Origin: a virus | Taxonomy: Duplodnaviria; Caudoviricetes | Virus record (IMG/VR): IMGVR_UViG_3300036985_009087 | Location: 1 to 49,631 of that record | DNA: 49,631 bases | Reading direction: 5' to 3' (one strand) | Part shown: positions 7,342 through 44,660 of the stretch, one piece after another | Position numbering within the stretch: position 1 is the stretch's first letter | How the letters are laid out: the number at the start of each line of letters is the position of its first letter | The notes under the pieces: generated by a model | Databases searched by the model: none | The model's input: only the letters and a program-made list of their open reading frames with translations | What the model was told of the DNA's origin: nothing | Made by a program: the position numbers and the translations under genes

Positions 7342-7841
7342 ACAAACCAATACCAAAATCCCTGCCACAACCACTACCGCACTTCACGGTTTCCGTGATT
7401 CCTTTGGATCCAGAAAACTTGACTACGGCGTTACTCTACCGAGGCGAAGGAGTGCGCTCTGCTAAAAATTGTCTGGCCATTCCATCCGGACTTTTAGAAC
7501 ATGGCGAATCTTTTGAAGAGTCTATCGTGCGAGAACTAGAAGAAGAACTTGGCATACCCGCGGATGCTTGCGGATTCCTTAAATTTCACTCACTTTACCG
7601 GAATATTTTACCAGACGGTTTTGATTGGGTAATCGGAATTTGGAGTATAGAAGTTTCTAACTTGGCGGATCTCGCGAAAAACTGTGAACCCGACAAACAC
7701 GATTACGTGAAAGTGGTGAAACTTTATGAACTTTGGGATTGGCTTAATAATGAAAAGTCTCTTGAATTTGCGCCTAATTTAGCGGAAAACTTAAAACCCG
7801 TTGTCCGCGAAATTCTAATAAATGCCCCGATCGGAAAATGA
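7338..7841 (+). CDS. Nudix hydrolase
   Basis: Nudix box GLLEHGESFEESIVRELEEELG; EPDKH motif. Confidence 0.92.
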   Translation: MNKPIPKSLPQPLPHFTVSVIPLDPENLTTALLYRGEGVRSAKNCLAIPSGLLEHGESFEESIVRELEEELGIPADACGFLKFHSLYRNILPDGFDWVIGIWSIEVSNLADLAKNCEPDKHDYVKVVKLYELWDWLNNEKSLEFAPNLAENLKPVVREILINAPIGK

Positions 7842-8530
7842 ACCCAATCATCATCATTGAAGGCCCGGATGGTTGCGGTAAAACAACATGGTGCAAACAC
7901 TACCAAGCCATGTTCGGTGGAAAGTATATGCATCTTGGATTGCATAAAAATCTATACGCTTATCAGACTATGAGCTTAGTTCGCGCGGTGTATTGGGCGA
8001 AAAAAGTTCCGGTACTCATCGATAGGCATTGGCCTTCGGAACAAATCTACGGATCTGTTTACCGCGGGGCATGTTTGCGTAAAGAAGCCGCTCGGTTAGA
8101 AAAGTTTTGCGAGAGTATTGGTGTTTTTTATGTCGTGGCCATTGGCGATGATGCCGATTCTATGGCAAATTGGCACCAAGAAACTTCGGCTCAGCGTCCT
8201 GAAATGTACTCGCCTGACTCGGACTACCGAAAAGTACTAAATGGCTATCTTGATTGGTGGTCAGGTAAAAGTACTTGCGCCATAAATATCGGCCATTGCG
8301 CTGAAACTAAGCCTATGTGCGCTAAATTTTTTTCGGCCATCCAGTATAACCGCGAAGGGTTTAACGGCCAGACCGGTATTAACAACCATATTCATATTAC
8401 CCAGGTTTTAGCTACAAACTGGCGTAATTTTCGGCTTTCATTAAAAGACAGCAACACCCTCACTAAAAACCAACTCATCGAAGAATGCGGATATGAAGCC
8501 CCAAAAAACAGCAACCAGCGCATGGTTTGA
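7838..8530 (+). CDS. Deoxynucleoside monophosphate (thymidylate-like) kinase
   Basis: IIIIEGPDGCGKTT P-loop; IDRHWPSEQIY motif. Confidence 0.85.
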   Translation: MNPIIIIEGPDGCGKTTWCKHYQAMFGGKYMHLGLHKNLYAYQTMSLVRAVYWAKKVPVLIDRHWPSEQIYGSVYRGACLRKEAARLEKFCESIGVFYVVAIGDDADSMANWHQETSAQRPEMYSPDSDYRKVLNGYLDWWSGKSTCAINIGHCAETKPMCAKFFSAIQYNREGFNGQTGINNHIHITQVLATNWRNFRLSLKDSNTLTKNQLIEECGYEAPKNSNQRMV

Positions 8531-9314
8531 CCTAATAGCAAAAATTACTGCTTCAGGTCAAATTCACAAACCTAGAAACCTCCCTATTCGGGAAATTATC
8601 GGAAATCAAGTCAAATTTGACATGAAGCATCCGATCGTCTTAACTAAGGCTAGAAATCTTAACTACAAGTTTATGGCTGCCGAAGCTTGGTGGATGCTTA
8701 GCGGCCGCAATGACACGGCTTCTATTGGAGAATACTGCAAAGCGATTCTAAAGTTTTCGGATGATGGCAAAACCTTTTTCGGCGCTTACGGCCCGAAAAT
8801 TTCGTCTCAGATTGACTATGTGGTCGGCAAGTTGAAGCAAGACCGCGAAAGTCGGCAAGCCGTCATAAACATCTGGAGAGAAAATCCACCGGAAACTAAA
8901 GACACGCCTTGCACAATTTCTGCGCAGTGGTTGATTAGAAATGGCGAGTTACACTGCATCGACACTATGCGTTCAAATGACGCGTGGCTAGGTTTTCCTT
9001 ACGACGTATTCAACTTCTCGATGTTATCCTGGCATATCATTAATGAGCTCCAAAAAGACGGGTTTAATGATCTTAAACTTGGCACTTTCACGCTGAATGC
9101 CGGATCGCACCATCTTTACGAGCCGGATTGTGAAAAGATTTATGCCCTATCGCTGATAGAGTGGTCTGGCAGTATAGACTTCAATATTTGCGCCGGCGGA
9201 GAATCCTGGCCAATCCTGGATCAACTGGCGTGGGTTTTAGGTAAAACTGAAAATCCAGAAGGCTCAAAAAGCGCATTTTTCACGGAGTTCAAATCGAAAC
9301 TTGTCTCCAAATGA
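8493..9314 (+). CDS. Thymidylate synthase homolog, probably a dCMP-type hydroxymethylase/methylase
   Basis: AYGPK, SRQAVINIW, catalytic DTPCT, MRSNDAWLGFPYD, GSHHLYE; Asp at the substrate-specificity position. Confidence 0.85.
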   Translation: MKPQKTATSAWFDLIAKITASGQIHKPRNLPIREIIGNQVKFDMKHPIVLTKARNLNYKFMAAEAWWMLSGRNDTASIGEYCKAILKFSDDGKTFFGAYGPKISSQIDYVVGKLKQDRESRQAVINIWRENPPETKDTPCTISAQWLIRNGELHCIDTMRSNDAWLGFPYDVFNFSMLSWHIINELQKDGFNDLKLGTFTLNAGSHHLYEPDCEKIYALSLIEWSGSIDFNICAGGESWPILDQLAWVLGKTENPEGSKSAFFTEFKSKLVSK

Positions 9315-12739: not shown

Positions 12740-13585
12740 ATGAACATCCGCATCACACCTGACAGCATCCGCAACCTCGCTCCCTTGAGCAACGACCAAC
12801 TCAGCACAATGGCGCCCGCCATCTTCTCCAAGAAAGCAGCGCCTGACGTTAGCGACCGCTACTCGTTTGTGTCCACCGCTGAGATCCTCCCGGTTCTTCG
12901 CGACCACGGCTTCCAACCAGTCGCCGCTGCTCAGCGCGGTAGCCGCAACTTCGGTGTCCACCGCGTTGAACTCTTCCACGAGAATCACCTCAAGGGTCTC
13001 ACTTCCGGCAAGCTTGAAGAAGCTCCTCGCTGGATTCTCAACAACAGCCACGACCGCACAACTCGCCTCAATCTGATCGGCGGTTTCTTCCGGTTCGCTT
13101 GCTCAAACGGCATGATCGTCGCTTCTGGCGTCACTGCGTCACTTCGTATGCTCCACATCTCGCTGGACGATGCGGCTATCCGCACGGCAATTAGCGGCAT
13201 GTCGCAAATGCTCGACGAGACCACGAGCCGCGTGGCTGACTTCCGCAATCGCAAACTCAGCAAGATCGAGCAAAACCTCCTGGCTAACTATGCGGCCGAA
13301 GTCCGCTACGCCGGTTGGAATTCGGTCCCAGTCGAAGCCAAAGACTTTTTGGCTGTGCGCCGTAACGAGGACCGCGGCGAAGATCTGTGGACGGTGTTCA
13401 ACCGCGTCCAAGAAAACAGCACCCGCGGAGGTATCGCGACTCGCAATGGCCGCGTCACCCGCCCGCTCAAATCGTTCTACGCTGACGTAACCGTTAATCG
13501 TCGCCTTTGGGCCGGTGCTGAAGCCATCTTTGAAGGTGGTGCTTCAGGTATCCAAGCCCTCCGCAAAGAACTCGCCAAAAACTAA
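12740..13585 (+). CDS. DUF932/DUF945 family protein
   Basis: APAIF, SDRYSFVST, LNNSHD, GFFRFACSNGMI, DLWTVFNRVQEN. Confidence 0.9.
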   Translation: MNIRITPDSIRNLAPLSNDQLSTMAPAIFSKKAAPDVSDRYSFVSTAEILPVLRDHGFQPVAAAQRGSRNFGVHRVELFHENHLKGLTSGKLEEAPRWILNNSHDRTTRLNLIGGFFRFACSNGMIVASGVTASLRMLHISLDDAAIRTAISGMSQMLDETTSRVADFRNRKLSKIEQNLLANYAAEVRYAGWNSVPVEAKDFLAVRRNEDRGEDLWTVFNRVQENSTRGGIATRNGRVTRPLKSFYADVTVNRRLWAGAEAIFEGGASGIQALRKELAKN

Positions 13586-13592
13586 CTGGCCA

Positions 13593-13633
13593 GAAGGGTC
13601 CGGGGTAAATTCCCCGGGCCCTTCATTTTTTTT
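13593..13633 (+). terminator. Rho-independent terminator
   Basis: GAAGGGTCCGGGG-TAAATT-CCCCGGGCCCTTC stem (one G-U pair) followed by a T-tract. Confidence 0.85.
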
Positions 13634-13634
13634 G

Positions 13635-13676
13635 TTTACACCCTATAAGCAGCTAGCTATATTCTCCACTGTCATG
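13635..13676 (+). promoter_or_regulatory. Sigma70-like early promoter, copy 4
   Basis: TTTACA-17 nt (containing AGCAGCTAGC)-TATATT, then GTCATGAG start 10 nt later. Confidence 0.65.
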
Positions 13677-14411
13677 AGTACACAAAACACCAATAGCCAA
13701 ATCCTAGACAAAATCCGCAATCTCCTCAAAATGGCCGACCCCGCCAACGGTGCTACGACCAATGAAATGGAAATTGCTTTCAAAAAAGCCCGCGAATTAA
13801 TGACTCGCCACGGTATTGAGCAGATGCAACTCAACGAAAATCCCGAGGACAACACGATCGGCCAAGAACGCATCAATACTGGCCGCCGCAAACGCGACGA
13901 GGACCGCTGGATTCCTGCCGTAATCCACCAGGTCTTCGACGTCAAAGTTATCTACTCTGCGCAGTGGGACTCGGCGGCCGGTAAAACTGGTAGCTACCGG
14001 CATGTCTACGTATTCATCGGTGAAAGTCTCGATGTGCAAGCCGCCAAAATTGCTTTGCCTTTGGTTTACGAAGCCATGAAAACAGGTCTAAACCGGTACC
14101 TTAAAATGATGGACGTCTCGTGGAATTCTACGGTGGCCAACTCATTCTTTCGCGGAGTCGCTGACGGTTTCATCAAAGAATCAACGCATGGTCGCCAAGC
14201 CGCAATGCGTAAATTCAAGCAAGAAGAACAAGATCGCTTTGCGATCGTTCTCGCCGACAAGAAAAAACGCATCTCTGCCTGGGTCGACCAGAATATGAAT
14301 GTGACTGCCGGACGCCGTAGTACTAGTCGTGCTCGGCATGATGAGTCCGCTCACCACTACGGTCGCCAAGTCGGCGCCGCAATTGACTTCACCACGAAGA
14401 TTGCCGCCTGA
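13674..14411 (+). CDS. DUF2786 domain protein
   Basis: ILDKIRNLLKMA...EMEIAFKKARELMTRHGI; SFFRG and G-x-x-x-G C-terminal motifs; start moved to the ATG after the terminator and promoter. Confidence 0.85.
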   Translation: MSTQNTNSQILDKIRNLLKMADPANGATTNEMEIAFKKARELMTRHGIEQMQLNENPEDNTIGQERINTGRRKRDEDRWIPAVIHQVFDVKVIYSAQWDSAAGKTGSYRHVYVFIGESLDVQAAKIALPLVYEAMKTGLNRYLKMMDVSWNSTVANSFFRGVADGFIKESTHGRQAAMRKFKQEEQDRFAIVLADKKKRISAWVDQNMNVTAGRRSTSRARHDESAHHYGRQVGAAIDFTTKIAA

Positions 14412-17400
14412 CTTCGCGCATCGCGTCGCGTACCATATCTTCCCATTCCTCTTCGGTTGACGAAGAGCGGTAGACACCCCGCCGCCTGAGAAGTTCCTCA
14501 GCGCGGCGGCGATCGTTTAACCAGGCGTCACGGTTAAAAGAGCCGTCGTCGTTAGAATACCGAGGGTTATATCCTGGCATATAGGACGCTTGAGATAATG
14601 GGCCTCTGTCTGTATTAGGTAATGCTGTTTCGGCAAGACCTGGACCATCCTGGTTAATAGGAGGCCCCATTTCTTCGGGTATAAAGTCCGAATCTAGCAA
14701 AACTTGGCTGAGGTCTTTTGGAAGTGCTTTTGAGCCTGCACCAGCAACTGATTCGAGCTTGATGTAAGTTGTGCCTCCTTTGTTTTGATTCGAAACAACA
14801 CGGAATTCTGTGTTTGGTGCTATGGCAATTTCAGATTCAATATTTTCGCCAGTAATTCCACCAACATCTATTGCGTTTGCTCCTTTTTTAAGATCAATTG
14901 TGTAATAAACAAGCCTGTCACTCTTGTTCAACTTTGTCTGGAATTTACTTTCAACTTTGTCCTTGTCCAGTGAAGCTGATGTTATTCCTCTGTCGCTTAA
15001 AATGTCTCCTTTTTTGAGTTGGAAAATTTCATCTCGCTTGCCAACTGGAAGAACAACACCTCTGTATACAGTTTGATCTTCTGGCAAAACTGATTTTTGG
15101 AATGCAGAAAGAAGATCTTCTATGTATTTTTGCCCCAATTCATCATTCCAATAATCTTTGTATTTTGGTTGGCCATATCTAAGGACTGACTGAATGTTTG
15201 AATATCCACCAACTTCAGAACTGTAAGTTCCATTCTGATATTCCTTTACTGCATCAACTTCTTCTTGAGAAATCGGCATATAGGAAATGTTCGGCGGCAC
15301 CACGCTGCGCATTTCGTCGCCGGATTTTTTCCACTTTCCAGGAGAATAGTTTCCGAACTTTAGTGGTTTTTCGTCAAATAACTTTTCGCGAACGCGGGCA
15401 GCATCTTCAGATACGGTGTGCGAGTAAAGGTATTTTTTCTTAAGCTGTTTTGCGATCTTTGCAATTTCGCGGTATAGAGCCTGGCCGTAACCGCGTCCTC
15501 GATATTTTTCTTCGACCCAACTTCTTCCTATAGTGATCGTGCTTGGACTGTCATGCAGATAAATATCGGCATCTCCGATCAACTTTCCATTTGGCAGTAG
15601 AATCCCTACCCGAGCGACTTCAAAAAATTCTAATTGCTCGTCAGTTGGCTTATTGACTTTGTATTTTGGTAGATTTTTCTTTGTGCGGTTAAGCGCCGCT
15701 TGAGTTGGCATGAAACTTGGAATCCCTTGCGCAACTTTACTAAGTGATTCTCCCTTGCCAAAATAGCGGTGGACATTGAGTGGATTTGTATTTTTTACAA
15801 GTACTTTGATAGAACCCGACTCGCTAGATCCTAAAGCCTCGGCTTCGACATCGTCAGCCACAAAAGCTTCATTTAATAGTTTTACTAAGGTCGACGTATC
15901 ATTCGAATCCACCGCGTTTCTAACCTGACTGGATTTTTCGTAATACGACTCGTATTCTTCTGGATTACGCCAATTCCTTCTAGCATGAGCCATTAATTTA
16001 TTCTCGGTAGAATCCGGATCTAACTCGATCGTAAAATCTCGGTCGGCGTAAATTGATGTCTCGACTCTTTCCGGGGTCGAATCTTCTCCGTAATCCCGAT
16101 AAATTGCGGCTATCGTCACCAGTTTTTTTCCAGGCCGCGCGATAAGCTCAGATTCATTGACATAGCGACTACTAGCGTTTAGTTCGGAAACGTCAATGGC
16201 CACGGAGTCTGAATCCAATACCGTCGACAATACTAACCCGTAGTCTCCTGGAAAACCTTTGCGATTATCTTTTTCGGCTTCAGATTTATTGCGCAGCCAT
16301 TGCATTGTCGACGCAAAACTATCCATTCCGGTATTGCTTATCTTTGTGGCAAATCTGACGGCGACTTTAGGATCCGTTGACCAAGACTCGTATGCCGATG
16401 AATCGACTTCTAGCGTGTCTCCTACTTTCAACCCTTCGATAAGAGGACCGTTTAGTGCAATTCCTCTAAAAGATTCTACAGGTTCTCCGGTGTACGGTGC
16501 CGCGCCTTCGATACGCCAGAGTTCATTGCTCTGCCGGTTTTCGTTAACATAGTTGCTGATAATCTCGGCGATTTCTTTAGTGTTAAAACTTTTCGGGTCA
16601 TTAAGAAGTCTAGTGACCGATGAACGCGCGCGTTTTATATCTGCGGCATCCCCATTTTTAACGGATCTATTCAATTCCCGCAACCACGAACTAAGTTCTG
16701 AACTAGGTAAAGATCTTCCTTGTCGGGGTTTTTGCTCTTGCATGAACACCGAAAATACCGGGTCCGCGGCGATAGCGGCGAAATCATTTTCATTACCGGT
16801 TTTTACATATCGGGCGACCATGTCTTTAAGTCGGTTTCGATCCCGAAATGCGGCGTTTACGCTCTGCATGTGTTCCGGCGTTAATCCAACTTCGCTTAAG
16901 ACCGTCGGCATGAAAGATCCAGCGGGTCCGCCAAAGTCAGAGGATAGTCGCAGGTCTCTATCAACATTTCGACTATATGCTCTAACATCCCGGGCATTTG
17001 CAATGAGATTAAAGGCCGCCATGAGATCGGGAGCATTGCTAAACTTAGAAAACAGGAGTTCGTCGGTATTATGGATAGCGTTATTTAAACGGTCCATATA
17101 GAAAAGCCGCTGATCTCGCGTTTGAGCGCCTTCTAAACCTTTTAAGAATTCGGTAACAAAATTCCAAACGTCATTTCTGCAGCGCATATCACTGCGGTAT
17201 GTTCCGCGCATAAGTTCATCTAGTTGACTAGCGGACTTCGCGTTTTTCAAAGCTTCCTTTGTGACAAAAGGATCTACGCGGCCTCGGCGAATATACTTGT
17301 TGATTTGATTTTTGACAAGATCCGAAAACACATTAAGGTAGAGATCTTTGTATTTTTTGATGTACTCGTTCTGCAGAGACCGTCCGTATTCATTTCCAGG

Positions 17401-20400
17401 ATCTCCTTCAGTCGAGATATAATACAGATTGTAGAGAGTCTTCGGCGTCAATCTAGACTCTGATTTTTCTCCACTCTCAAGCCCATATTCTTCGCTAGGC
17501 ATGAAAGATGCCGGAGGATTTTTATGCCCGTCTGCTTTCGACCATTGCAAATATTCTTTGTAGAGTTCTGGTTCAAAACTTGTGGCTTGTATGATGGAGT
17601 TTAAATCCTGCATAGTCGCCAATTCTAAAGCTTTTTGGAAACTCTCAGCGGATATGCCTTGAAGCATATTCCAAGCACTCTCGTGAATTTTCAGGACTTC
17701 TTCGCCATACGCGTTTGAGAATGTGTGGATACTTGTTTCTTTAGCCGAATCTTTGAGGGCTGTTTTTATAAGCTTAAAAAGCTGCAATTTCCAAGGGTCT
17801 CCTCCGACTTGTAATTTCTCAAATTGCGAAACTTTTGGTGGCCATGCGACGCCTTCTTTCCAATATTCTAAGATATTTTTCTTGCTGCCGTACGCGTCGT
17901 ACGCGTCGTTAAACGAGAACAAATCGTCCGTGGCAAAACTGCTTTCGCCGTCCTCGGTTTCCGTCTGGTCGGTTTCCAGCTGGTAGAGTTCTTTTTCGCC
18001 GGTCGGTTCTTGTAAACTCTTATTGATCTTGGTTTCGACAAGAGGAACCCAAACGCCGCTAGAATTTTTGTATTCCAGAAATTCTGGCGGAATAGTCTCC
18101 AAGGCGCCCATGTCATCGGTCGAAAGATAAATTTCACCATTGAAAGGATCAAACTGAAGTCCCATTGGAGTAGTCTTGCTGTATGTTCCGTAGGCTTCTA
18201 CCAGTTTGTTTTTATTGACGCGAAGTAGAAAACTTGTTTCTGAGTAGCGGTCGTCGTAAACTTGGGTATTTTTTGGAGTATTTCCGAAATAAACTCCCGG
18301 GCCGGAATAACCATCTTCAGATGGTAATAGTCCTTTTTCGGTAATTGAAGCTATGACGTCCGGATCATTTGCAGTTAAATGGTAAATATAGGGGTCGGTC
18401 GTGCCGAAAATAGGTTCATTCGCCGGAGTCGGTGGCTTCTTATTTGAGACAGGCTTAATGCCGGAAGTTAAAGCTTCATTGGTAACGGCCTCTATAAATT
18501 TATAGAATTTTGGTAGTTTGCCGAAATGTATTTGACTAGTGTCGAAACCTGATTTTTTAAGTACTTTATCAACATCAGTTTCAATTTCGCCGGTATCCGG
18601 ATTGACAATGGCTTTTAAAACCGGGATAAGGTCGTCCATCGAATAAGCTCCGCCAAAATACCCTTTATTTTGCTGGTCCCAATATTCCGACATGAGCGTC
18701 TGCCTGCTTTTTTCAAGCCACGTATCGATAGCCGAAGGAATCCCGAAAGTTTTCCATCCCAAATAATTATCAGCATCCGATGGCGCGGGTTCAATATAGG
18801 CGTCGGTAATTTGCTTGGCTAAGTCTACGCCGACAATACCCGGTAATTCTTTTGCTGTAATTCCGTTTGGCCAAGACCAGTTTGTCTGTAGTACATTTAA
18901 ACCGTCTTGATTAAATGCATGGATAAAATAATTTCCCGCTTGGTTTACCGTAACGTTTATATTATCCCAGTTTTCTTTGTTAGCTTCTTTGCCATTTGCT
19001 TTTATGACGGCGTTAATTTTAGACTCAGGTGATGTTACCGCTGGAGTTGGGTAATGCGCTGTTGAGAATGCTTGAAGGACCCAAGTATGCGCGATCGTTG
19101 TTGGAGGCGGCGGGATAATTCCGGTTTTTTTCCAAACTTGTTGTAAGTTTTGCGCAACTTCACCGGTATCCGGATTAATTATTGCGTCCAGTATGACTTG
19201 TTTTTCGAAATCGGAAAAGTATCCGGCGTTTTCCGACATCATTGCGGCTTTCCAGTCTTCCGCGGATTCAAATTGGTCGGGCAATACTCCTTCTAGTACG
19301 GGTTTAGGAATATTTAATTGGGCTAAAGCTGATTGTTCATACGGCGGAAGCGTTGCGTTCTCGTCGGCGTGTTCTGCAACAGAATCTTTTATGGTTCTGT
19401 CGATAGCTGCGACTATTTCTTTAGTCATGCCGTAGTTTAGAAGCGATTCATCCGACATTCCACCAGTTAAAACACTATGCGGAATACCTTCAGCTATTCC
19501 GTTTTCGTATACTTCTATGGCTTTTAAAATCATCTTTTCTCCGACATAAGCCGCATCCTCATCGGCGTACCCGCTTACTAAGTTGCTTACATCGTAATAA
19601 CTCAAGCCAAAGTCTTTAAAATTATCGGCAACGTATTTATCAAGTGCCGAAGGATCTATTTCTTTTGGCACTGTTGGAGCGGTCTTTTCTTCCGACGCGT
19701 TCATGAATGCATCTGTGTATGCATCTGATATCCATTTAGTGGTAGCCGGGTGATGTTTTGCGTAATCTTCAAAAGTGTAGTCTGGTGGTTGGCCCAAAAT
19801 TTTCATTAAGGCTTGCACCTTTTCTTTATTGCTAAAAGCGGACATTTTTCCGGCACTCTCAGCTATAAGATCTAAAATTTGTGATGTTTGGTCGTCGCTT
19901 AGAAAAAATTTAGGGTGACCGTTTGCTACTTCTGTCCATTTCTTTTTCCAAGCACTTGCTTCGGGCTTTGCCTGGGATTTAAGTTTTATGGCTTCTCCAA
20001 TTGCCGCTTTAATAAAATCCACCTGTTGACTATACGTAGCATTTACGCCAGATTTATTTTGGATAAATGACAAATCCGTAGTCAACTCGCCTGTTTTTTC
20101 GTCAACGATAGCTTCAAGAAGTTTTTGAGCCTGGTCTTGGCTGTAAACAGGTCCGGTATTAGACTTATAGATGTTTTGCGTTTGCAGCGCATCGAGCATC
20201 TGCGATTTCCATTTCTTTTTCCAAGCACTTGCTTCGGGCTTTGCCGGAGATTTGAGTTTTACGCCAGCCTCTAAAGCTCTAAAATTTTCTTTTAGCTTGT
20301 CTTTAAGTTCTTTGGCTGTAGTTCCGGAAATTTCGAATAACGTTTCATCCGGATTATAATAGAATTCGACAGGTTCTTTCGGCCCTTTTTTACTAATGGC

Positions 20401-23400
20401 AATGGTTTTTACGGGTAAAGTTGTATGATGTTCAGCAACGTTTGTGGCAATGTATGTTGCCATTCCAGTTGGAGTAGAAACCTGAAATTCAGTTTGTTGA
20501 CCAGTAGTCTTTCCGATCAGTGTCTCTCCTAGAAAATTTAAGTGGGATTCAGTAAAAGGTTGTTTTTTCTTGATTCCTAAAGAGGCTTTAATAAAATCGG
20601 AGTAAAGCAGAGCAATATCGTTGTGGTCTTCAACGGAAGTTGGGACAAGACCTTCGGCTAATGGATCAATTTCGTCAATCGCCGCGCCGCTTTCGTCTAC
20701 AGCAACTAAAATTGTGCTGCTATAAGGGTCTCCTTGTGGGTCGTATCCGCTACTATTTTCTAGTTTAAAAGAATACTCGCCAACCCGAAACGTATTTTTC
20801 TTGCCGGTAACTAAATCTTGTGCGCCTTGCAAAATTTCACCATCTGATATTTTTACCCCGGCGTCGGTTTGTTGCGGTTCATCGGAGTTGTTTATCAACT
20901 GGGCATTTTCTACGGCCGACTGTTCTGCTAGTTTTTGATTTTTGACATTCTCAAAAATCTGTTTTATTTCTTTAGACGCCAACACGCCTACGGGTCTTGC
21001 ACCCATTTTTTCGGAGATCAGTAACTGCGCTAGTTCGATAAAAGCTTTTGGCGGAAGTGCGTTTACTGTTTTTTGAACGCCATTCTGGTTAATAAGTTGA
21101 GTAATAGGATGGACGTATGTTTTTAAATTGCGCGATAAATACCTGCTTAACTCTACCGAAAAATCTTTACCAGATTCTTTTTTAGCTGAAACGCCAATTC
21201 TTGAATAAATCGAGTTTCCGGGTTTCATTTTTTCGATAAACTCCGTAAGTTCTTTAACCGTTTCAGGTGTAACTTCATCGGCAGCCGCTTTCTGAAGAAA
21301 TTCTTTTGTCGGCGCGTTGACGTTTCCAAAATTCTTAAGAACTATAAGGCCCAATTTTTTCAAATCTGAAGAAACTAGTGGAAGTAATTCGCGAGGATTT
21401 TTCAAGTGGTATTTGAAATCCAGCATTTCCATAACCCACTGGTACCCGCCATCCTTTGCGTACTTTTCAATTTTGTTGAAAACGGTATTGGTATTATGCT
21501 GCAAGTCGTAAACTTTGTCGATGGCGAAGGCTATTTTTTCCGGCGTATTGGCATAGTGCAGCAAAACAAAAGCTTCGGCGATTTGAGCCCATTTTTCTCC
21601 GCCATAGCTGGAATTCCAAATTCCTTCGCGGAATACTTTTGCCATTTCTAAAGCCAGATCTTTCCTGCGCGCTTTAGAAAAATCTTTTCCTGCGTAATTC
21701 TCTAGTGCCCGAGTAGCGGCTTGCCAAGATTTTTTACGGATATTTTCCGAAGTTTCGAATTCTTTTGGTACACCGGGTATGCGACCTACATACGGACTTG
21801 GAGCGTCATACGCAGAAAAGTATTTGATATATTGATTCATGATCGGGCCATAGATGGCCGGATCTTGAGCTCTCTTAATTGCGTGCCGTATTTCAGCGGA
21901 GAGCGAAAAGAATACTTGGTCGAGTAAATGCTCTTTTAAGAAAGTTTGTAGACGGTCTTGCGTGACTTTTACGATAGGACGGTAATCTTCAGATTGGAGG
22001 AAACTAATGGCTTCTGGGTTTTCTCCAGAATATTTTGCTAGACTCGCTTCACTAAGACCCGCCAGATTTCCTTGAAACGGAACATCGGAAAAACCAGAAA
22101 GATAATTGATAAGATAGAAATCTGCCATTAACGTCCTAGGATCGCTAGGAACCGTATAATTCAAATTCGGCATGAAGTTGATCTTCATCTTGCCGTAGTC
22201 AACTGGCAATTTTGGAGATGCCGATTCTTGAAAATGGTTTATGCGGTCAACCCTTGCTGACATAATCAACCGGTCTGGTGAATCTTGTCCTTTTTTAGCT
22301 TTGATCTTGGTCCGCATCGGGTTTAAAGCCTCTGTGCCTTTGTCAAATAAGTTAAAGAAGTCGTTGACACGATTTTTCTTCAACTCGGCTACGGCATCGT
22401 CTGCGTCTAATCTTTCTCCAACGTACTGATTTGACGAGTTTTTGCCATCGCCTGTCAAACCCGCGTTGTGGTTGTTCAAGACTTTAAGTAGATCTTGCCA
22501 AAAGCTAAAAGTATCGCCATTCCAGAGTGTCAAATTTTCAGGAAATTTTGAAGACCAAACATTCAACTTATCAAACATCCGGCTAACCGAAATTGAAGTG
22601 AACAAGAAGTTTTGCTTTTGGCTGATACGCCAGCTTAAAGGCACAATGTCTCGAACGCGCGGGGCTAGTGAACGCGCTTTTCCTCCGCGGTAGACAGCCT
22701 GATAATCAATAATTGCCCGAGTTCCGTCTTTGCGTTGCAACATGGCATTGCCTTCGGCAATAATTCGTTTCAGTCTAGCCGGAACAAGATTGTTAGGCAA
22801 GTTCAGAACGGCTTGTAACTGCGCAGGACTTAAAACACCAGTTAGAACACCGTTGTTATCCACATCGCGCATTTTAGGCATGCCATCCTCAGGAGCACTA
22901 ATAATAGCATCATAAATAATCTTGCCGCGTTTAGTTGCTCGAGCATTAGCTTCGCGTGGAGAAATTACAACAGGCGTCCCATCCGGATTCCGCCGAATCC
23001 TAAAGTCAGTTTCAACTTTGGATCCATTAGGCAAAGCACTCAAATTTACTGGTTGACCAAGAACAATCTCATTACCGGCTTCATCCACGATCTTCCCGTC
23101 TTTCATGTAGTACTGGGCGATATATGGATCAAGTCCTACTCCGTCAGGGAGGACAACTTCGGATATTTTATTACCCGCATCGTCGTAAGCCGCCAGAACC
23201 TGATCTTTAACGAATCGATCGTCGGAAATATATTGTTCCTGAAGGGCCGGACTTGACATGACTACGGCCCATGGAATATCTCCGTCATCCCGTACTTTTT
23301 CGGTACCATCAGGATTTAGTCCGTCAGTTTCGAAGGTGTACGACCCAATTTCATCGCGTAACAAACGCGTGACGCGGCGCATCAGTGCCGAAGATTCTGG

Positions 23401-26199
23401 GTCGATCTTTGCTCCTAAAGCTGTCGAAAATTGGCCTTGGCTATCGAATATAATTCCGCGACTGCGCAAAGCCTCTTTTAATTGCTTCAAAGATCCGTTC
23501 CGAGTTTTTGCTTCAATCCAGTCTACAATAGCTTGACCGGGTGAATCAGCCGCTGCGCGCAGACCGCCTTTAACATTTCCGGATGTCGCGTAGTTTTCTA
23601 CGACCATTTCCTCACGAACATACTCTAAGAATTTATCGACGCTGTCGAATTGATCTATAAACGATTGTCCTCCCATGCGAGCAGCATAGTTTTGACCATA
23701 CCGCATAACCTCGGCTTCGCTATAGATACCGGGAATTTCGGCAATAACTTGGCCGTTGTCGTCTTTAATTTTCCGCCCGAACATTTGCTGTTCGAGTTGC
23801 TCTAAACCTAAAGCGTCGCGGACTTCTTTAAACTGTTTTAATACGTGGAAACTTTCATGCCGCAGGGTGTGGCCAGGATTGAAACCTTCTCTTCCAAGAT
23901 GGGAAAGAAGGTTTCCATTCAAAGCCACAATAGGAGAGTCCAGGTTTGCCGGAATCAAATGCGCAGGCTGATTAATGTAATGATTTTTGTGAAGTGCAAA
24001 GCCGCGCGTACTTTTTGCCGCTTCCACCATATCGCTAGCGAGCTTAATGGTCTGGTCGGCTTTTTGCAGTAATTCGGCTTCATTCGGTTCTAATGTTAGT
24101 TTGCCGGCAATTTGACTACGGAAGAATTCTGCATCAGCTAAAGTTTTTCCCCAAATTTTACGAATTTCCTCTTCGGCATTTGCGTCGTCTAGAATTTTAA
24201 AGCTTGGGCTGCCTAAACCGGCTTGGTTTCCTATAGCTTTAAGTTGTTCTAAAGCGTCTGCAAAATCTAACGTGACTTGGCGCTGAACTTCGTCGGTAAA
24301 CTGCTTGTTGTTCTTATTCTTATCCAGCAAATTCCGGTGGTTGATTAGCGTATTCATCTCGTCTTGCCAGAATTTCCACTCTTGACCATTTTTAGTCGAA
24401 TCGCGATAAGTCTGGAATTGCTTTATTTGCCCGTCGAGTGTCGCAATCCGAGCATTAACATCAGAAAACACGTTTATCTTAGACTTTACGTTTTCATCCG
24501 CTAAATCCATGAATCTTGCAATATCGGCGTCCTCGTCTGCGCGACGCGATCCCGGATCCGGATCAATAAACTGATCTATTTTTGTACTGAAGTTAGTCGT
24601 CGGATCAAGAAGAGCACTTACTCGGCCGACCGGATCTGAACCCATGACAAGGCCGATGCCTACGCCAGTTCCAAGTGACTGGCCGAGTTGCGTAGGGTTC
24701 TCAATTTCAGGCAACCCTAACATAACGTTTAACGCCGCGCCACTAGTTCCAGCTCGAGTCATTGCGCCAGTATAACGGCCAATCCAATCGGCGGATCGCG
24801 CGCGCATAAGACCGCCTTTTGTCGTGCCAAAAAACCGGCGATTAAACTCGCTAGAACGGGCATCTCCACCTATTTTTTCAGCTAGTCCTTTCCGACCGCG
24901 CATTCCTTGTTTGTCAATTTGGCGGCCCGCATCTCTAAGTAAACGTCCAGTTCCGGTTAAAATTTTTCCAGAAAGGTACGTCGGAACTTGTGGGACTAAG
25001 CTAATATTTTTCAGTAAAGTGTCAGGATCGCCGGTCAAAACTTGACTAAGTTTACGTCCGGCTATGTTTGAAAACTCCGAAGCTTTTTCCAAACCCATGC
25101 CGACGGCTTCAACAGGATGCAAACCTTTAATCGTCCCGGTCAAAGCTTTGGCTGTTAAATCTGTACCTTTACGGAACGGTTTTGCGATAACTTTCGAGAC
25201 CGGTCGAACTAGTCTATTCGGTAATCCGATTGGGTTAAAGATTTCCCCGGCCAGAGCCATTTCTTTATCCGGCACAATGGACTTTTCAAGGATGCTCTTT
25301 CGGTAATCTTCTTGCGCAACGTCTAGTTGCTCTGGGGTTAATTCGACACCTTGTAATGCCGAAGTCGTGGCTATAATCGGCTTAACAAGTGGGTTTTCTG
25401 CTAATAAGGCCGCAGCGCGATCAGGATTTTCTTTAGTTTTTGCCGCGGCTTCGCGCGTCATGTAGGTCCGGTTTGCAAAATCTTTAAAGGATTCTTTTTC
25501 GGTCTTTGTACCTAAAGCTTCTTGGACTCGGTCGGTAAAAGAACTTCCAAAGTTGTAAAATTTGGTAGCGGATCCGGCAGTTTCCTCTAGATCATTAGCC
25601 AGACCAGAAGCTACAGAACGAAGCGCAAGTTCTGCGTCTGCCGCTTCTTTGGCTTGTTGCGCATTTCTATCCCAAGGATGAAAAAATTTACTACCGGCAA
25701 GTGGACGGCCTGCGCCCGGACCAAATTGCGTAGCATAAAGACGTTCTCCGCCTAACGCCGTAGAAACTTTATTAACTACTTCGGATGCCGCGTCAACAGG
25801 CAAACCAACAATGTCCGATAATGCTCCGGCAGGATTTGCTACGACTTGATCAACCGCGGCTTCTTTTGTAAATTTACCAAGTCCTATCCCGGTATCTACG
25901 ACCATTTTGGCGACCCTAGGAAGAAAATTTGTGGCGACTTCGACAGCTTGGTCTGCTAAAGGTTGTTCCCGCTGCTTCTCAAATACAACTTTCAGTTGTT
26001 CTTGATCGAGTTCTGGATCGCCTTCGTTATAGCGTTTGTATAACGAATCTGGATCTTTGTCTTTTTTACGGCGTATGATTTCTGAAGTCGGTACTTTAGA
26101 CTTCAGCTTTTCGCGTATTTGTTCGGATGCACTAACTGACGAAGGAGGCTGTTGGCCTCCTTCTCTCAGACGTTTTCGGATTTCTTCAGAAGCGAGCAT
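14389..26199 (-). CDS. Giant (3936 aa) polyvalent internal virion/ejection protein with HExxH metallopeptidase motif, three ADP-ribosyltransferase-like domains and a GNAT domain
   Basis: HESFH (23845-23859); YHLT..GL.P..GPGVYF..GE..IPPEFL (~18040-18400); FRG..SWST..ESE (~16130-16480); VEEKYRGRGYGQALY (~15470-15520); VYRG..TSAS..ESE (~14750-15250); last gene of the morphogenesis arm. Confidence 0.85.
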   Translation of the reverse strand: MLASEEIRKRLREGGQQPPSSVSASEQIREKLKSKVPTSEIIRRKKDKDPDSLYKRYNEGDPELDQEQLKVVFEKQREQPLADQAVEVATNFLPRVAKMVVDTGIGLGKFTKEAAVDQVVANPAGALSDIVGLPVDAASEVVNKVSTALGGERLYATQFGPGAGRPLAGSKFFHPWDRNAQQAKEAADAELALRSVASGLANDLEETAGSATKFYNFGSSFTDRVQEALGTKTEKESFKDFANRTYMTREAAAKTKENPDRAAALLAENPLVKPIIATTSALQGVELTPEQLDVAQEDYRKSILEKSIVPDKEMALAGEIFNPIGLPNRLVRPVSKVIAKPFRKGTDLTAKALTGTIKGLHPVEAVGMGLEKASEFSNIAGRKLSQVLTGDPDTLLKNISLVPQVPTYLSGKILTGTGRLLRDAGRQIDKQGMRGRKGLAEKIGGDARSSEFNRRFFGTTKGGLMRARSADWIGRYTGAMTRAGTSGAALNVMLGLPEIENPTQLGQSLGTGVGIGLVMGSDPVGRVSALLDPTTNFSTKIDQFIDPDPGSRRADEDADIARFMDLADENVKSKINVFSDVNARIATLDGQIKQFQTYRDSTKNGQEWKFWQDEMNTLINHRNLLDKNKNNKQFTDEVQRQVTLDFADALEQLKAIGNQAGLGSPSFKILDDANAEEEIRKIWGKTLADAEFFRSQIAGKLTLEPNEAELLQKADQTIKLASDMVEAAKSTRGFALHKNHYINQPAHLIPANLDSPIVALNGNLLSHLGREGFNPGHTLRHESFHVLKQFKEVRDALGLEQLEQQMFGRKIKDDNGQVIAEIPGIYSEAEVMRYGQNYAARMGGQSFIDQFDSVDKFLEYVREEMVVENYATSGNVKGGLRAAADSPGQAIVDWIEAKTRNGSLKQLKEALRSRGIIFDSQGQFSTALGAKIDPESSALMRRVTRLLRDEIGSYTFETDGLNPDGTEKVRDDGDIPWAVVMSSPALQEQYISDDRFVKDQVLAAYDDAGNKISEVVLPDGVGLDPYIAQYYMKDGKIVDEAGNEIVLGQPVNLSALPNGSKVETDFRIRRNPDGTPVVISPREANARATKRGKIIYDAIISAPEDGMPKMRDVDNNGVLTGVLSPAQLQAVLNLPNNLVPARLKRIIAEGNAMLQRKDGTRAIIDYQAVYRGGKARSLAPRVRDIVPLSWRISQKQNFLFTSISVSRMFDKLNVWSSKFPENLTLWNGDTFSFWQDLLKVLNNHNAGLTGDGKNSSNQYVGERLDADDAVAELKKNRVNDFFNLFDKGTEALNPMRTKIKAKKGQDSPDRLIMSARVDRINHFQESASPKLPVDYGKMKINFMPNLNYTVPSDPRTLMADFYLINYLSGFSDVPFQGNLAGLSEASLAKYSGENPEAISFLQSEDYRPIVKVTQDRLQTFLKEHLLDQVFFSLSAEIRHAIKRAQDPAIYGPIMNQYIKYFSAYDAPSPYVGRIPGVPKEFETSENIRKKSWQAATRALENYAGKDFSKARRKDLALEMAKVFREGIWNSSYGGEKWAQIAEAFVLLHYANTPEKIAFAIDKVYDLQHNTNTVFNKIEKYAKDGGYQWVMEMLDFKYHLKNPRELLPLVSSDLKKLGLIVLKNFGNVNAPTKEFLQKAAADEVTPETVKELTEFIEKMKPGNSIYSRIGVSAKKESGKDFSVELSRYLSRNLKTYVHPITQLINQNGVQKTVNALPPKAFIELAQLLISEKMGARPVGVLASKEIKQIFENVKNQKLAEQSAVENAQLINNSDEPQQTDAGVKISDGEILQGAQDLVTGKKNTFRVGEYSFKLENSSGYDPQGDPYSSTILVAVDESGAAIDEIDPLAEGLVPTSVEDHNDIALLYSDFIKASLGIKKKQPFTESHLNFLGETLIGKTTGQQTEFQVSTPTGMATYIATNVAEHHTTLPVKTIAISKKGPKEPVEFYYNPDETLFEISGTTAKELKDKLKENFRALEAGVKLKSPAKPEASAWKKKWKSQMLDALQTQNIYKSNTGPVYSQDQAQKLLEAIVDEKTGELTTDLSFIQNKSGVNATYSQQVDFIKAAIGEAIKLKSQAKPEASAWKKKWTEVANGHPKFFLSDDQTSQILDLIAESAGKMSAFSNKEKVQALMKILGQPPDYTFEDYAKHHPATTKWISDAYTDAFMNASEEKTAPTVPKEIDPSALDKYVADNFKDFGLSYYDVSNLVSGYADEDAAYVGEKMILKAIEVYENGIAEGIPHSVLTGGMSDESLLNYGMTKEIVAAIDRTIKDSVAEHADENATLPPYEQSALAQLNIPKPVLEGVLPDQFESAEDWKAAMMSENAGYFSDFEKQVILDAIINPDTGEVAQNLQQVWKKTGIIPPPPTTIAHTWVLQAFSTAHYPTPAVTSPESKINAVIKANGKEANKENWDNINVTVNQAGNYFIHAFNQDGLNVLQTNWSWPNGITAKELPGIVGVDLAKQITDAYIEPAPSDADNYLGWKTFGIPSAIDTWLEKSRQTLMSEYWDQQNKGYFGGAYSMDDLIPVLKAIVNPDTGEIETDVDKVLKKSGFDTSQIHFGKLPKFYKFIEAVTNEALTSGIKPVSNKKPPTPANEPIFGTTDPYIYHLTANDPDVIASITEKGLLPSEDGYSGPGVYFGNTPKNTQVYDDRYSETSFLLRVNKNKLVEAYGTYSKTTPMGLQFDPFNGEIYLSTDDMGALETIPPEFLEYKNSSGVWVPLVETKINKSLQEPTGEKELYQLETDQTETEDGESSFATDDLFSFNDAYDAYGSKKNILEYWKEGVAWPPKVSQFEKLQVGGDPWKLQLFKLIKTALKDSAKETSIHTFSNAYGEEVLKIHESAWNMLQGISAESFQKALELATMQDLNSIIQATSFEPELYKEYLQWSKADGHKNPPASFMPSEEYGLESGEKSESRLTPKTLYNLYYISTEGDPGNEYGRSLQNEYIKKYKDLYLNVFSDLVKNQINKYIRRGRVDPFVTKEALKNAKSASQLDELMRGTYRSDMRCRNDVWNFVTEFLKGLEGAQTRDQRLFYMDRLNNAIHNTDELLFSKFSNAPDLMAAFNLIANARDVRAYSRNVDRDLRLSSDFGGPAGSFMPTVLSEVGLTPEHMQSVNAAFRDRNRLKDMVARYVKTGNENDFAAIAADPVFSVFMQEQKPRQGRSLPSSELSSWLRELNRSVKNGDAADIKRARSSVTRLLNDPKSFNTKEIAEIISNYVNENRQSNELWRIEGAAPYTGEPVESFRGIALNGPLIEGLKVGDTLEVDSSAYESWSTDPKVAVRFATKISNTGMDSFASTMQWLRNKSEAEKDNRKGFPGDYGLVLSTVLDSDSVAIDVSELNASSRYVNESELIARPGKKLVTIAAIYRDYGEDSTPERVETSIYADRDFTIELDPDSTENKLMAHARRNWRNPEEYESYYEKSSQVRNAVDSNDTSTLVKLLNEAFVADDVEAEALGSSESGSIKVLVKNTNPLNVHRYFGKGESLSKVAQGIPSFMPTQAALNRTKKNLPKYKVNKPTDEQLEFFEVARVGILLPNGKLIGDADIYLHDSPSTITIGRSWVEEKYRGRGYGQALYREIAKIAKQLKKKYLYSHTVSEDAARVREKLFDEKPLKFGNYSPGKWKKSGDEMRSVVPPNISYMPISQEEVDAVKEYQNGTYSSEVGGYSNIQSVLRYGQPKYKDYWNDELGQKYIEDLLSAFQKSVLPEDQTVYRGVVLPVGKRDEIFQLKKGDILSDRGITSASLDKDKVESKFQTKLNKSDRLVYYTIDLKKGANAIDVGGITGENIESEIAIAPNTEFRVVSNQNKGGTTYIKLESVAGAGSKALPKDLSQVLLDSDFIPEEMGPPINQDGPGLAETALPNTDRGPLSQASYMPGYNPRYSNDDGSFNRDAWLNDRRRAEELLRRRGVYRSSSTEEEWEDMVRDAMREVRRQSSW
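19936..20245. repeat. 37-bp perfect direct repeat within the giant ORF (19936-19972, 20209-20245)
   Basis: CCATTTCTTTTTCCAAGCACTTGCTTCGGGCTTTGCC twice, 273 bp apart; encodes AKPEASAWKKKW. Confidence 0.95.
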
Positions 26200-27565: not shown

Positions 27566-28114
27566 TTACATTCCTCCGAATCTTGTCTGTGGTGATGAAA
27601 ATGTCAGATTGGCAGCACGATTGATCGATTCTCCAAATTTTGTGAATGCTGATGTGTTTCTCGGGAGACCAAGAACTGTTGTTTTTGCAATAGCTGGAGC
27701 TGGCTCTTTCCCTAGATTTATTTCTTCAATAAATGCCTGACCACCTGTTGCTCTTCCTGCATAAGACCTAGATCTTTCCTCAAATTCTTTACGTCTTTTT
27801 TCACCTTCTTTTTTACTTTCACCTTCATACCTAGACTGTTCAGCTCTGGCATCGCTTGCTTTCTTCTCGCCAGCAAGTCTTGCTTTTTCTGCTGCAGCAA
27901 TTTCATCCATGGCTGTGGCTGCAGTGTATGGATTGGCTTGCTGTGTTGGCAGTTGCCTTTGCTGTGGCTGTGGCTGTGGCTGTGGCTGTGGCTGTGGCTG
28001 TGGCTGTGGCTTTGGCTGTGGCTGTGGCTTTGGAACATACTTTTGGTATCCTGTGTTCTGCTTTCCTTTATCCGTTAGCCAAGGAAAAGGGTCTGCATTT
28101 TTATTTTTAGCCAT
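27566..28114 (-). CDS. Low-complexity putative internal virion protein with (PQ)n tract
   Basis: 182 aa, co-oriented and tightly packed; ends FSSPQTRFGGM. Confidence 0.7.
   Translation of the reverse strand: MAKNKNADPFPWLTDKGKQNTGYQKYVPKPQPQPKPQPQPQPQPQPQPQPQQRQLPTQQANPYTAATAMDEIAAAEKARLAGEKKASDARAEQSRYEGESKKEGEKRRKEFEERSRSYAGRATGGQAFIEEINLGKEPAPAIAKTTVLGLPRNTSAFTKFGESINRAANLTFSSPQTRFGGM
27961..28033. repeat. Hexanucleotide tandem repeat (GCTGTG)n, about 12 units, encoding Pro-Gln
   Basis: Read directly; two units are GCTTTG (Pro-Lys). Confidence 0.95.
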
Positions 28115-28117
28115 AAA

Positions 28118-28618
28118 TTATAGCCCTCCAATTCGAGCTTGCTGCGTTGGATACATCATATTTGCTGGCTTTACGATGCTTGTTCCGAATGGCGTCAATC
28201 CAGGAGCAGGAGCAGAGGATTTTGATTTATCGCCAATTCTCTGGTTGATGGCAGAAGTCGTGGAATCTACCATTGTGCTGTCTGATGGTGCTCCACCTGC
28301 CTGATTTGCAAAAGTTTCTGTTGCTCCTTTATATTGATCTAAAGAAGTAGAGTCTTTTGCCATTTGCTTTTCATTCCAGAGCTCTTGATCGCGCTTTGCT
28401 TCATCAATTTTTCGCTGTGCTTCTTCAGCTTTGCGCGTTTCATCATACTGTTTGCGCGTATCTTCGTATTGCCGTGCGTTCTCTTTGCGCTGATTTGCCA
28501 TTTCAGTTGCCCAAATCTGCATCGAGTTGTCCTGCTGCTGAATAGGCTGTTGATACTGTTGATTGTTATTGTTATTATTGCTACCACTTCTGCTTTTTGA
28601 TTTGCTTCTTCCGCCCAT
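28118..28618 (-). CDS. Low-complexity putative internal virion protein (MGG start)
   Basis: 166 aa, N/Q-rich, coiled coil; GGAGGAG SD upstream; ends YPTQQARIGGL. Confidence 0.75.
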   Translation of the reverse strand: MGGRSKSKSRSGSNNNNNNQQYQQPIQQQDNSMQIWATEMANQRKENARQYEDTRKQYDETRKAEEAQRKIDEAKRDQELWNEKQMAKDSTSLDQYKGATETFANQAGGAPSDSTMVDSTTSAINQRIGDKSKSSAPAPGLTPFGTSIVKPANMMYPTQQARIGGL

Positions 28619-28646
28619 AACTACTCCTCCTTATTATTTTGTTTCA

Positions 28647-29000
28647 TTAAAATCCAATCCTGCGTTGTGTTGGATTGGAAAAGTTCGTTCCAGAAAACAA
28701 TCCACCTCCAGAAGTCCCTGTCTGAGGAGTGAATCCTGCAGCTTTATAACTTGCTGGAGAATTTGTCATAATTGGAGCATTTTGATCAGGAGAGTATCCA
28801 GACCTTTGACTCATTATTCCTTTGGCAGCAGAGTCAAATGCAGTATTGGCATATTGTCCTGCCATTTTATATGGATCATATCCATATTTTTGTTGATACT
28901 CTGCTGACATTCCTGTTGCTGCTGGCATTGCAGCTGCTGAGTTTGGCACAGATGCTGAAGTTGTAGCTGCAGGTGGTGGTGTTGATGATGATCCGCCCAT
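28647..29000 (-). CDS. Low-complexity putative internal virion protein (MGG start)
   Basis: 117 aa, A/S/T/P-rich; ends FSNPTQRRIGF. Confidence 0.7.
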   Translation of the reverse strand: MGGSSSTPPPAATTSASVPNSAAAMPAATGMSAEYQQKYGYDPYKMAGQYANTAFDSAAKGIMSQRSGYSPDQNAPIMTNSPASYKAAGFTPQTGTSGGGLFSGTNFSNPTQRRIGF

Positions 29001-29023
29001 ATTTTTATTTATTGTTGGTTTGA

Positions 29024-29311
29024 TTAATAATTTATTTTTCCGCTAGGACTAACTTTCCCGTGATATCGTTTTGCCCAAGCATCGGCTTGAGGAATATCCG
29101 AGAAAGATGGGTAATTGTTAATTCCAAATTTCATAGCAGTTGATACTGCTTGATCATCAGTTAATTTTTTGCCTTCCACCATTGTTGGAATGACATATTG
29201 CTTATTGTCTATCCCAAAAGTTCCAAGAAGTACATTACTCTGACTGCCATCTTGGTTTTGCACAGATGGATGCTTTGTCGGAAATCCTTTGTATGTTGCG
29301 CTTCCACCCAT
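29024..29311 (-). CDS. Small protein (MGG start) with a compact globular domain
   Basis: 95 aa; NQDGSQSN...VIPTMVEGK...YPSF..A..WA pattern. Confidence 0.7.
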   Translation of the reverse strand: MGGSATYKGFPTKHPSVQNQDGSQSNVLLGTFGIDNKQYVIPTMVEGKKLTDDQAVSTAMKFGINNYPSFSDIPQADAWAKRYHGKVSPSGKINY

Positions 29312-29352
29312 ATTACTTCATCGATTTTGCGCCTTTGCGTATAGTCCTGGTT

Positions 29353-30989: not shown

Positions 30990-30991
30990 AA

Positions 30992-44658: not shown

Positions 44659-44660
44659 TT

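Follow-up and report, generated by a model that had tools for sequence, protein, structure and literature searches.

The viral contig IMGVR_UViG_3300036985_009087, a 49.6-kb stretch of an incomplete phage genome whose full length is referred to here as the window, encodes a giant polyvalent protein between whose domains a short peptide motif recurs. Replication and nucleotide genes occupy the left arm of the window (+ strand), and its right arm is made up of late genes and tail genes (− strand); neither a capsid nor a portal gene is annotated among the 38 open reading frames (ORFs) of this incomplete genome. The giant gene is downstream of tail-fibre and tail-like genes, an order that is conserved in related loci, where tail genes are followed by a gene of 127 amino acids (aa), several small proteins starting with Met-Gly-Gly, a 420-790-aa gene and then the giant gene. 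We take this order to resemble the ejection-protein blocks of podophages and, because of this resemblance in gene order, the giant protein would be packaged in the virion and injected. The features of the gene are collected in Table 1.

An earlier note on this DNA had described the protein as an array of effector cassettes delimited by six [SN][FY]MP motifs. Six are indeed found, at aa 1341, 2898, 3095, 3495, 3639 and 3872, exactly where that note had placed them, and they account for six of the seven Met-Pro dipeptides in the 3936-aa ORF, as it had also counted. The DNA pattern it had read at these sites, T(T/A)(C/T)ATGCC, is realized as TTCATGCC four times and as TATATGCC twice. The expected chance count of [SN][FY]MP in the giant protein is 0.033, and none of 20,000 shuffles of the protein contains more than two; the pattern was picked after viewing the protein, yet it holds in relatives. 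The other 37 ORFs of the window contain only 2 [FY]MP in 11,853 aa. Missed in the original count was a decayed seventh site, DFIP (aa 3838-3841), which forms the right border of the VIP2-like cassette and reads DFMP in the close relative L001 (TTTATACCC in the window, TTTATGCCC in L001). The statement that each motif falls at a domain boundary stands, although not every boundary has a motif, since aa 1343-2899 hold several domains without one. Likewise, [SN][FY]MP describes the window protein well, but the family consensus is broader, [AIPV]-[RSQNK]-[FY]-M-P.

Relatives of the core, the region preceding the first motif, were collected in several steps: 14 by a word search with aa 720-1345, 23 loci in viral and metagenome contigs and 11 more later, and 403 core representatives (50% clustering, E<=0.001), of which 150 were listed. 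Neither GenBank phages nor GTDB genomes, the latter searched with two patterns, yielded a relative, and no cultured one turned up; the source of one homolog gives it the label Terrimicrobiaceae. In a set of 31 homologs, from which 7 duplicates or fragments had been dropped, [FY]MP occurs 137 times against 7.3 expected, with the consensus [AIPV]-[RSQNK]-[FY]-M-P-[AGS]. The core end was located in 151 of 161 proteins (5 partial or duplicate proteins were left out and 5 lacked a matching pattern), and in these 151 [FY]MP is found 255 times in 182,650 aa downstream of the core and 6 times in 175,777 aa of core. At the core end itself, N1341 is conserved in 56/56 alignment rows and P1344 in 54/56, and protein alignments with distant homologs stop at this first motif. 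None of 43 non-redundant Pfam domain stretches contains the motif (12.5 expected; scan of 49 proteins, mostly chosen for many motifs). With the widened pattern, HNT domain 1 begins one residue past a motif in 22/24 matches and HNT domain 2 ends no more than 2 aa from one in 12/13. Of 748 internal ends of protein alignments, 280 are no more than 10 aa away from a motif in one or the other partner, where 44 were expected. Cutting the 31 homologs at their motifs gave 167 segments in 72 clusters, 21 of which recur in different orders, and the Pfam modules of relatives include ART-PolyVal, Kinase-PolyVal, PBECR5, zeta kinase and C5 methylase. The check on homologs thus favours the earlier reading of a cassette array with programmed junctions: module content and order vary, breakpoints are enriched at the motif, and the motif lies outside all of the Pfam stretches. 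Some members depart from this picture. In the tight clade of P0005-P0011 and L013 most members have 0-1 downstream motifs over 1,400-1,800 aa, and P0010 has 5. Five proteins (P0083, P0092, P0106, P0147 and P0150) consist of the core only and end 2-8 aa past its motif, two of them with a lost zinc ligand; these ends may be true stops, or the assembly may have broken at a hypervariable junction, and a search for the DNA of a core-only protein found none. In L030 the giant gene is split near aa 1700-1740 (about 13400-13800) by a frameshift that lies inside a module and not at a motif, and is either a sequencing error or a real split.

The cargo of the window protein begins with a long segment in which HNT domain 1 is followed by a variable, repeat-bearing middle, a putative H-Y-E ADP-ribosyltransferase (ART) and a helical domain, and which varies among close relatives without any motif. 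Its repeats (KSxAKPEASAWKKKW twice and I[IV]NPDTGE twice, 18430-20232, − strand) coincide with the motif-free region that varies among close relatives. The second HNT domain claimed by the earlier note is related to the first (hhalign 83.5%, E 8e-6, 78 columns), and the GNAT and VIP2-like ART modules it had named both match Pfam. Its other ART labels fared less evenly, the R-S-E domain having residue motifs and an ESM Atlas lead and the H-Y-E domain a residue pattern alone. Borders of the cargo modules were taken from Pfam and homology; the core, the HNT domains and the two putative ARTs have no Pfam match, and HNT domain 2 has no ESM Atlas match. In one relative the body of the GNAT cassette is swapped for another sequence, and L001 carries two other modules in place of the VIP2-like ART cassette. 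The mini-module (cluster c3) recurs in L001, L004-L010, P0003, P0004 and P0012, just before the conserved charged tail, and in L019 two motifs are just 8 aa apart.

Table 1. Features of the giant gene in the window (nucleotide positions in the window; aa, residues of the giant protein).
Feature	Position	Strand	Remarks
Giant polyvalent protein gene	14389..26199	−	3936 aa; last gene of late (tail / putative internal virion protein) block
Conserved core	22168..26199	−	aa 1-1344, ends N-F-M-P; homologs of aa 720-1345
Predicted zincin-like metallopeptidase	23581..24033	−	HESFH aa 781-785 (23845-23859); third ligand E864
WYL-like Sm/SH3 barrel with helical insertion	22180..22872	−	aa about 1110-1340; directly before first motif
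Junction motif 1, NFMP (core end)	22168..22179	−	model confidence drops from 91 to 58 just past motif
Segment 1	17503..22173	−	1557 aa (aa 1343-2899); motif-free, several domains
HNT domain 1	21298..22173	−	start of segment 1
Putative H-Y-E ART	18025..18417	−	residue pattern only
Junction motif 2, SFMP	17497..17508	−	pattern match
Cassette, HNT domain 2	16912..17502	−	197 aa; placed differently in relatives
Junction motif 3, SFMP	16906..16917	−	pattern match
Cassette with putative R-S-E ART	15712..16911	−	400 aa
Putative R-S-E ART	16075..16524	−	R-G / S-W-S / E-S-E motifs; ESM Atlas lead, DRAT cluster 0.90
Junction motif 4, SFMP	15706..15717	−	pattern match
Cassette, GNAT acetyltransferase	15280..15711	−	144 aa; PF00583, aa 3534-3601, E 2e-7 / 3e-9
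Junction motif 5, SYMP	15274..15285	−	DNA identity to L001 lost <=7 nt past motif
Cassette, VIP2-like ADP-ribosyltransferase	14689..15273	−	PF03496, aa 3643-3816, E 6e-11 / 6e-12
Decayed junction motif, DFIP	14677..14688	−	aa 3838-3841; DFMP in L001
Mini-module between two motifs	14581..14682	−	34 aa; cluster c3, 29-39 aa, 10/31 homologs
Junction motif 6, SYMP	14575..14586	−	pattern match
Charged C-terminal module	14392..14580	−	63 aa; begins 1 aa past motif in 16/17 matches

Analysis of 80 distinct junctions revealed that the information in the motif, referred to below as the tag, is confined to eight coding bases with free flanks. The wobble base of its Pro codon is free (29/21/17/13), as is the −1 codon; one genome that uses YLP encodes the Leu of its tags by CTG, TTG and CTC; and all 87 plus-strand copies in giant genes lie in one frame. 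Clades use their own dialects of the tag, namely FMP, FLP/YLP, FSP, FQP, FAP and FMA. Across 128 proteins the cargo motif agrees with the core-end dialect 277 times, against 178.5+-13 in permutations that ignore kinship. Module ends of the GQP-x and DIR types, which were matched by pattern and not by alignment, appear in the dialect of their host in 19/26 and 39/66 cases, against 5.2 and 22.1 in permutations that likewise ignore kinship. In one clade 4/5 cores end in FMP and the cargo uses FQP, so cargo tags do not simply copy the core end. A FastTree phylogeny of 114 cores shows 12 changes of the cargo dialect and 33 of the core-end dialect, with agreement in 61/78. Because the codons vary, and because different clades use different versions that are adopted by the same module ends, we conclude that the tag is a peptide code, read as peptide and placed between domains in clade-specific versions.

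The dialects also bear on one of three mechanisms offered in the earlier note, in which the ATG of the motif is an internal start codon and the modules are made as separate nested proteins. An ATG does stand at the start of a domain in every motif of the window, and the Phe codon directly before it is biased towards TTC. The FSP, FLP, FQP and FAP dialects lack Met, which excludes internal starts as a general rule; Shine-Dalgarno-like words precede 10/80 motif ATGs and 161/1348 other internal ATGs, and there are no stop codons between modules. We therefore regard translation from within the array as highly improbable.

Comparison of the window with relatives at the DNA level located sites of module exchange. 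Relative to L001, identity ends no more than 7 nt past motif 5 and is regained about 15 nt short of the decayed site, which makes the VIP2-like ART a cassette bounded by these two sites. Among L004-L010, identity starts or stops at TTCATGCC; L004 and L006, for instance, are identical over the 60 nt upstream of a motif and unrelated from 10 nt past its start. All 8 FMP-FMP junction pairs that share one flank switch no further than 15 nt from the motif, which had served as the anchor in choosing the pairs. Further contigs extend these observations: a low-depth contig from run X6 follows the ART side of the window across motif 5, departs at 15312 and from there matches an L001-type GNAT end, a third combination, and a contig from X2 departs from the window at the decayed site (X7 and X12 contigs resemble the genome of L001 and were not counted as independent). 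An unanchored comparison gave 108 abrupt DNA switches, of which 21 are close to a motif in both genes, where at most 5.4 were expected, and the other 87 lie away from motifs. Module exchange is thus enriched at the motif yet does not require it, since most abrupt switches lie elsewhere.

These data bring in the possibility that the motif is a recombination scar, that is, a microhomology of 8 nt (TTCATGCC) or the core of a site-specific crossover, spread by the exchange of cassettes, whose peptide is just a tolerated linker. Besides the anchored junction pairs, codon usage speaks for it: Phe in the motif is encoded by TTC in 51/54 cases (34.5 expected per genome) and, in a second count, in 66/74 (47.3 expected), and other Phe-Met pairs show a weaker bias (63/88, 55 expected). 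The bias is a DNA-level signal beyond what protein selection alone explains, and one reading of it is homogenisation by crossovers in the 8-nt match. Selection for accuracy as its source was not supported, TTC encoding 56/92 conserved and 177/281 variable Phe residues. Cassette recombination has also been suggested for the polyvalent loci of Verrucomicrobium (PMC5512222). A scar as the whole explanation is nevertheless quite unlikely, in view of the freedom of the Pro wobble base and −1 codon, the absence of a bias in the motif Tyr codon, the Leu codons that vary within a genome, the single reading frame of the plus-strand copies and the many switches away from the motif. Moreover, no integrase or recombinase is annotated among the 38 ORFs of this incomplete genome, and related loci contain no stand-alone ORF of <900 aa that matches a module. 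Recombination microhomology, another of the mechanisms offered earlier, thus survives in part, as a second layer seen in the crossovers at these codons and the TTC bias, and the term "integron-like" was an overstatement for a motif that has no DNA site beyond its coding bases.

The core of the giant protein offers a candidate for the reader of the tag. Its predicted zincin-like metallopeptidase has H781, E782 and H785 in one helix and E864 in a later helix (two models, pLDDT 84), with two strands before the HExxH helix, where the zincin fold has a three-stranded sheet. Among 128 near-complete cores HExxH is found in 116 and HExxxH, a variant described for this domain (PMC5512222), in 8 more, leaving the site intact in 124 and degraded in four. 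Two of the degraded-site cores end 2 and 8 aa past the core motif and a third carries 615 aa of cargo without tags, its three nearest relatives having 1-2. Downstream tags are absent from 3/4 proteins with a degraded site and 14/124 with an intact one (Fisher p 0.007, a post hoc comparison in which truncation is possible). Directly before the first tag lies a second predicted domain, in which Y1166, R1316 and D1318 are conserved in 55/56 alignment rows. In a VIA search of 48,161 chains its nine top matches are all WYL proteins (Z 5.6-6.8, below the tool mark of 8; rmsd 2.0-3.9 over 77-97 residues), and we take it to share a likeness with the WYL-type R-x-D-R-I; Pfam gave no match for the barrel. 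Given these middling Z scores, the WYL-like identity is a lead. WYL domains adopt an Sm fold and have been proposed as sensors of nucleic acid (PMC6789036), and a regulatory role for the barrel is speculation. The top BFVD fold matches are labelled polyvalent.

Taken together, these observations are best accommodated, with a probability that we put somewhat above even, by a self-processing polyvalent protein in which the zincin of the core would cleave at the tag and set the modules free, and in which swaps at the tag are retained. The protein would be packaged in the virion and then injected, and the predicted metallopeptidase would cut the tag, in the head or after entry, to release separate effectors. 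A protease site is accordingly, as far as sequence can tell, the best fit among the three mechanisms of the earlier note; that the HExxH...E domain is both the protease and the reader of the tag, where it would cut and when, is what we infer. The array itself would have evolved by ordinary, non-site-specific recombination at many places. Swaps at the tag would survive because the reading frame is kept, every domain stays whole and the new module can still be released, and the shared 8-nt TTCATGCC may aid crossovers there. Self-cleavage by this domain type has been proposed for the polyvalent class (PMC5512222).

Several observations weigh against this reading. The zincin fold match is weak (long model: Certhrax Z 5.3, lethal factor catalytic region Z 4.2); the isolated zincin gave no Z>=5 in VIA (best Z 4.0, again Certhrax), Foldseek against PDB gave no match at E<=0.001 with either model, and a PDB sequence search returned only coiled-coil-type noise. 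P0109 retains 3-4 tags with a degraded site (HEAGE). Three proteins with an intact site end 3-4 aa past a conserved core tag, at a stop or a contig break, and the first tag may therefore have a structural role. Segment 1, with 1,557 aa of cargo in several domains, carries no tag. Counted on independent pairs, the association between dialects falls short of significance (on average 4.2 pairs go the same way, 0 the other way and 7.8 show no difference; p 0.06-0.25). The TTC bias and the switches away from motifs, described above, point in the same direction. Finally, the N4 virion RNA polymerase, which has such a domain, is packaged uncut (PMC5512222), and the domain of phi24B gp47 has been proposed to degrade peptidoglycan instead (10.64898/2026.04.10.717836). 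A complex prediction of core aa 691-1360 with a 35-aa junction peptide scored 0.00, gives no verdict and was not used either way.

Two other explanations fit most of the same data as cleavage by the zincin. The tag could be an uncut docking or threading signal, recognized by a domain of the virion or of the core, possibly the WYL-like barrel, and ordering packaging, unfolding or ejection. Such a signal would account equally well for the peptide-level conservation and the clade dialects, for the retention of the tag in proteins that end 2-8 aa past it and in P0109, and for the uncut packaging of the N4 polymerase (PMC5512222). We consider it rather unlikely, since the 1,340-aa core and neighbouring late proteins lack tags, the loss of the zinc site coincides with loss of tag or cargo in three of four cases, and such a signal has no known reader. 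Alternatively, the tag may be cut by another protease, phage- or host-encoded, with the zincin acting elsewhere, for instance on the cell envelope. Because the contig is incomplete, the gene for a head protease may be absent from the window; phage zincins have been proposed to digest peptidoglycan (10.1101/2020.03.07.982082, 10.64898/2026.04.10.717836), and the tags of P0109 persist without an intact zinc site. If a head protease were at work, other virion proteins should bear its mark too, in contrast with the near absence of [FY]MP from the other ORFs of the window, and the dialects track clades of the core tree (12 changes in 114 rows), a pattern that also tracks whole-phage ancestry; cleavage by a separate protease is therefore unlikely in our view.

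If the self-processing reading holds, the protein would resemble the MARTX toxins (PMC2900308), in which one chain of variable effectors is cut at several short inter-domain sites by an internal protease. MARTX toxins are secreted bacterial proteins with an InsP6-activated cysteine protease that acts at a Leu site, whereas the window encodes a phage protein with a predicted zinc protease and an aromatic-x-Pro tag. No MARTX cysteine protease domain or repeats were matched by Pfam in the whole giant protein at E<=1, and the protein is not a MARTX member. A fuller version of the likeness, which is possible though doubtful, would make it a phage counterpart, an injected magazine of effectors: the WYL-like barrel would meet entering nucleic acid and switch on the zinc protease, which would cut a private three-residue code and thereby release every payload; this code would co-evolve with the protease, imported modules would be rewritten to the host dialect, and the codons would double as a preferred crossover point.

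The closest described class is that of the phage polyvalent proteins (PMC5512222), likewise giant multidomain phage proteins with HExxH...E, GNAT and ART modules. The window protein shows the marks of that class, joining diverse conflict domains in a variable architecture and being encoded by a phage gene among virion genes. Both self-cleavage by the metallopeptidase domain and cassette recombination were proposed there; the additions made here are a defined tag whose dialects differ by clade, the mapping of crossovers, and a WYL-like barrel next to the zincin. The available part of that paper, to which its alignment files do not belong, mentions no junction peptide or "linker", nor a WYL-like barrel as a domain of polyvalent proteins. 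The N4 virion RNA polymerase and gp65-67 of crAss-like phages are also giant injected proteins with an HExxH or zincin domain, and cleavage of fused forms has been proposed for the crAss-like phages (PMC13434306; 10.1101/2020.03.07.982082). They differ in that the N4 protein is reportedly packaged uncut and that Pfam found no RNA polymerase domain in the giant protein. No such tag appears in the accessible portions of PMC9503650, PMC13434306, 10.1101/2020.03.07.982082 and 10.64898/2026.04.10.717836, and no description of a junction peptide in polyvalent proteins was found in the literature searched, whose reach excluded most subscription papers. Variable modules swapped at a shared short sequence are also known from integrons and from polymorphic-toxin cassettes (the latter via PMC5512222). 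Integrons have a long DNA site, an integrase and silent cassettes. In the giant gene, by comparison, the cassettes share one reading frame and lack a long DNA site, an annotated integrase and nearby silent cassettes.

The protein class and the idea of self-cleavage were thus already published (PMC5512222), and what is new is the tag. It provides that proposal of 2017 with concrete candidates for the cut sites and for the catalytic residue (E782), with naturally occurring variants of specificity and with natural losses of the zinc site, so that a direct test in E. coli becomes possible. In addition, hundreds of giant proteins that lack annotation can be resolved by the tag into clean modules, many of which probably target bacterial defences or serve host takeover. 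Were there no cleavage, a conserved, clade-specific inter-domain tag would still call for another reader.

Other genes of the window deserve mention. Between the tail genes and the giant gene, several small low-complexity proteins start with Met-Gly-Gly (27566-31375, − strand), a pattern present in nearly all related loci, and one of their neighbours in the same interval contains a long Pro-Gln run. A PAPS-reductase/QueC-like gene (29353-30162, − strand) lies within this late cluster and is present there in many, though not all, relatives. Two proteins of the tail region (41317-45745, − strand) contain autotransporter passenger repeats (PATR, E 5e-34 and 1e-12). On the + strand, 101-2437 and 7338-9314 carry genes for a PLP-dependent enzyme, a "ferredoxin" PHROG, dCMP deaminase, Nudix, thymidylate kinase and thymidylate synthase, a set that by analogy may serve pyrimidine base modification.

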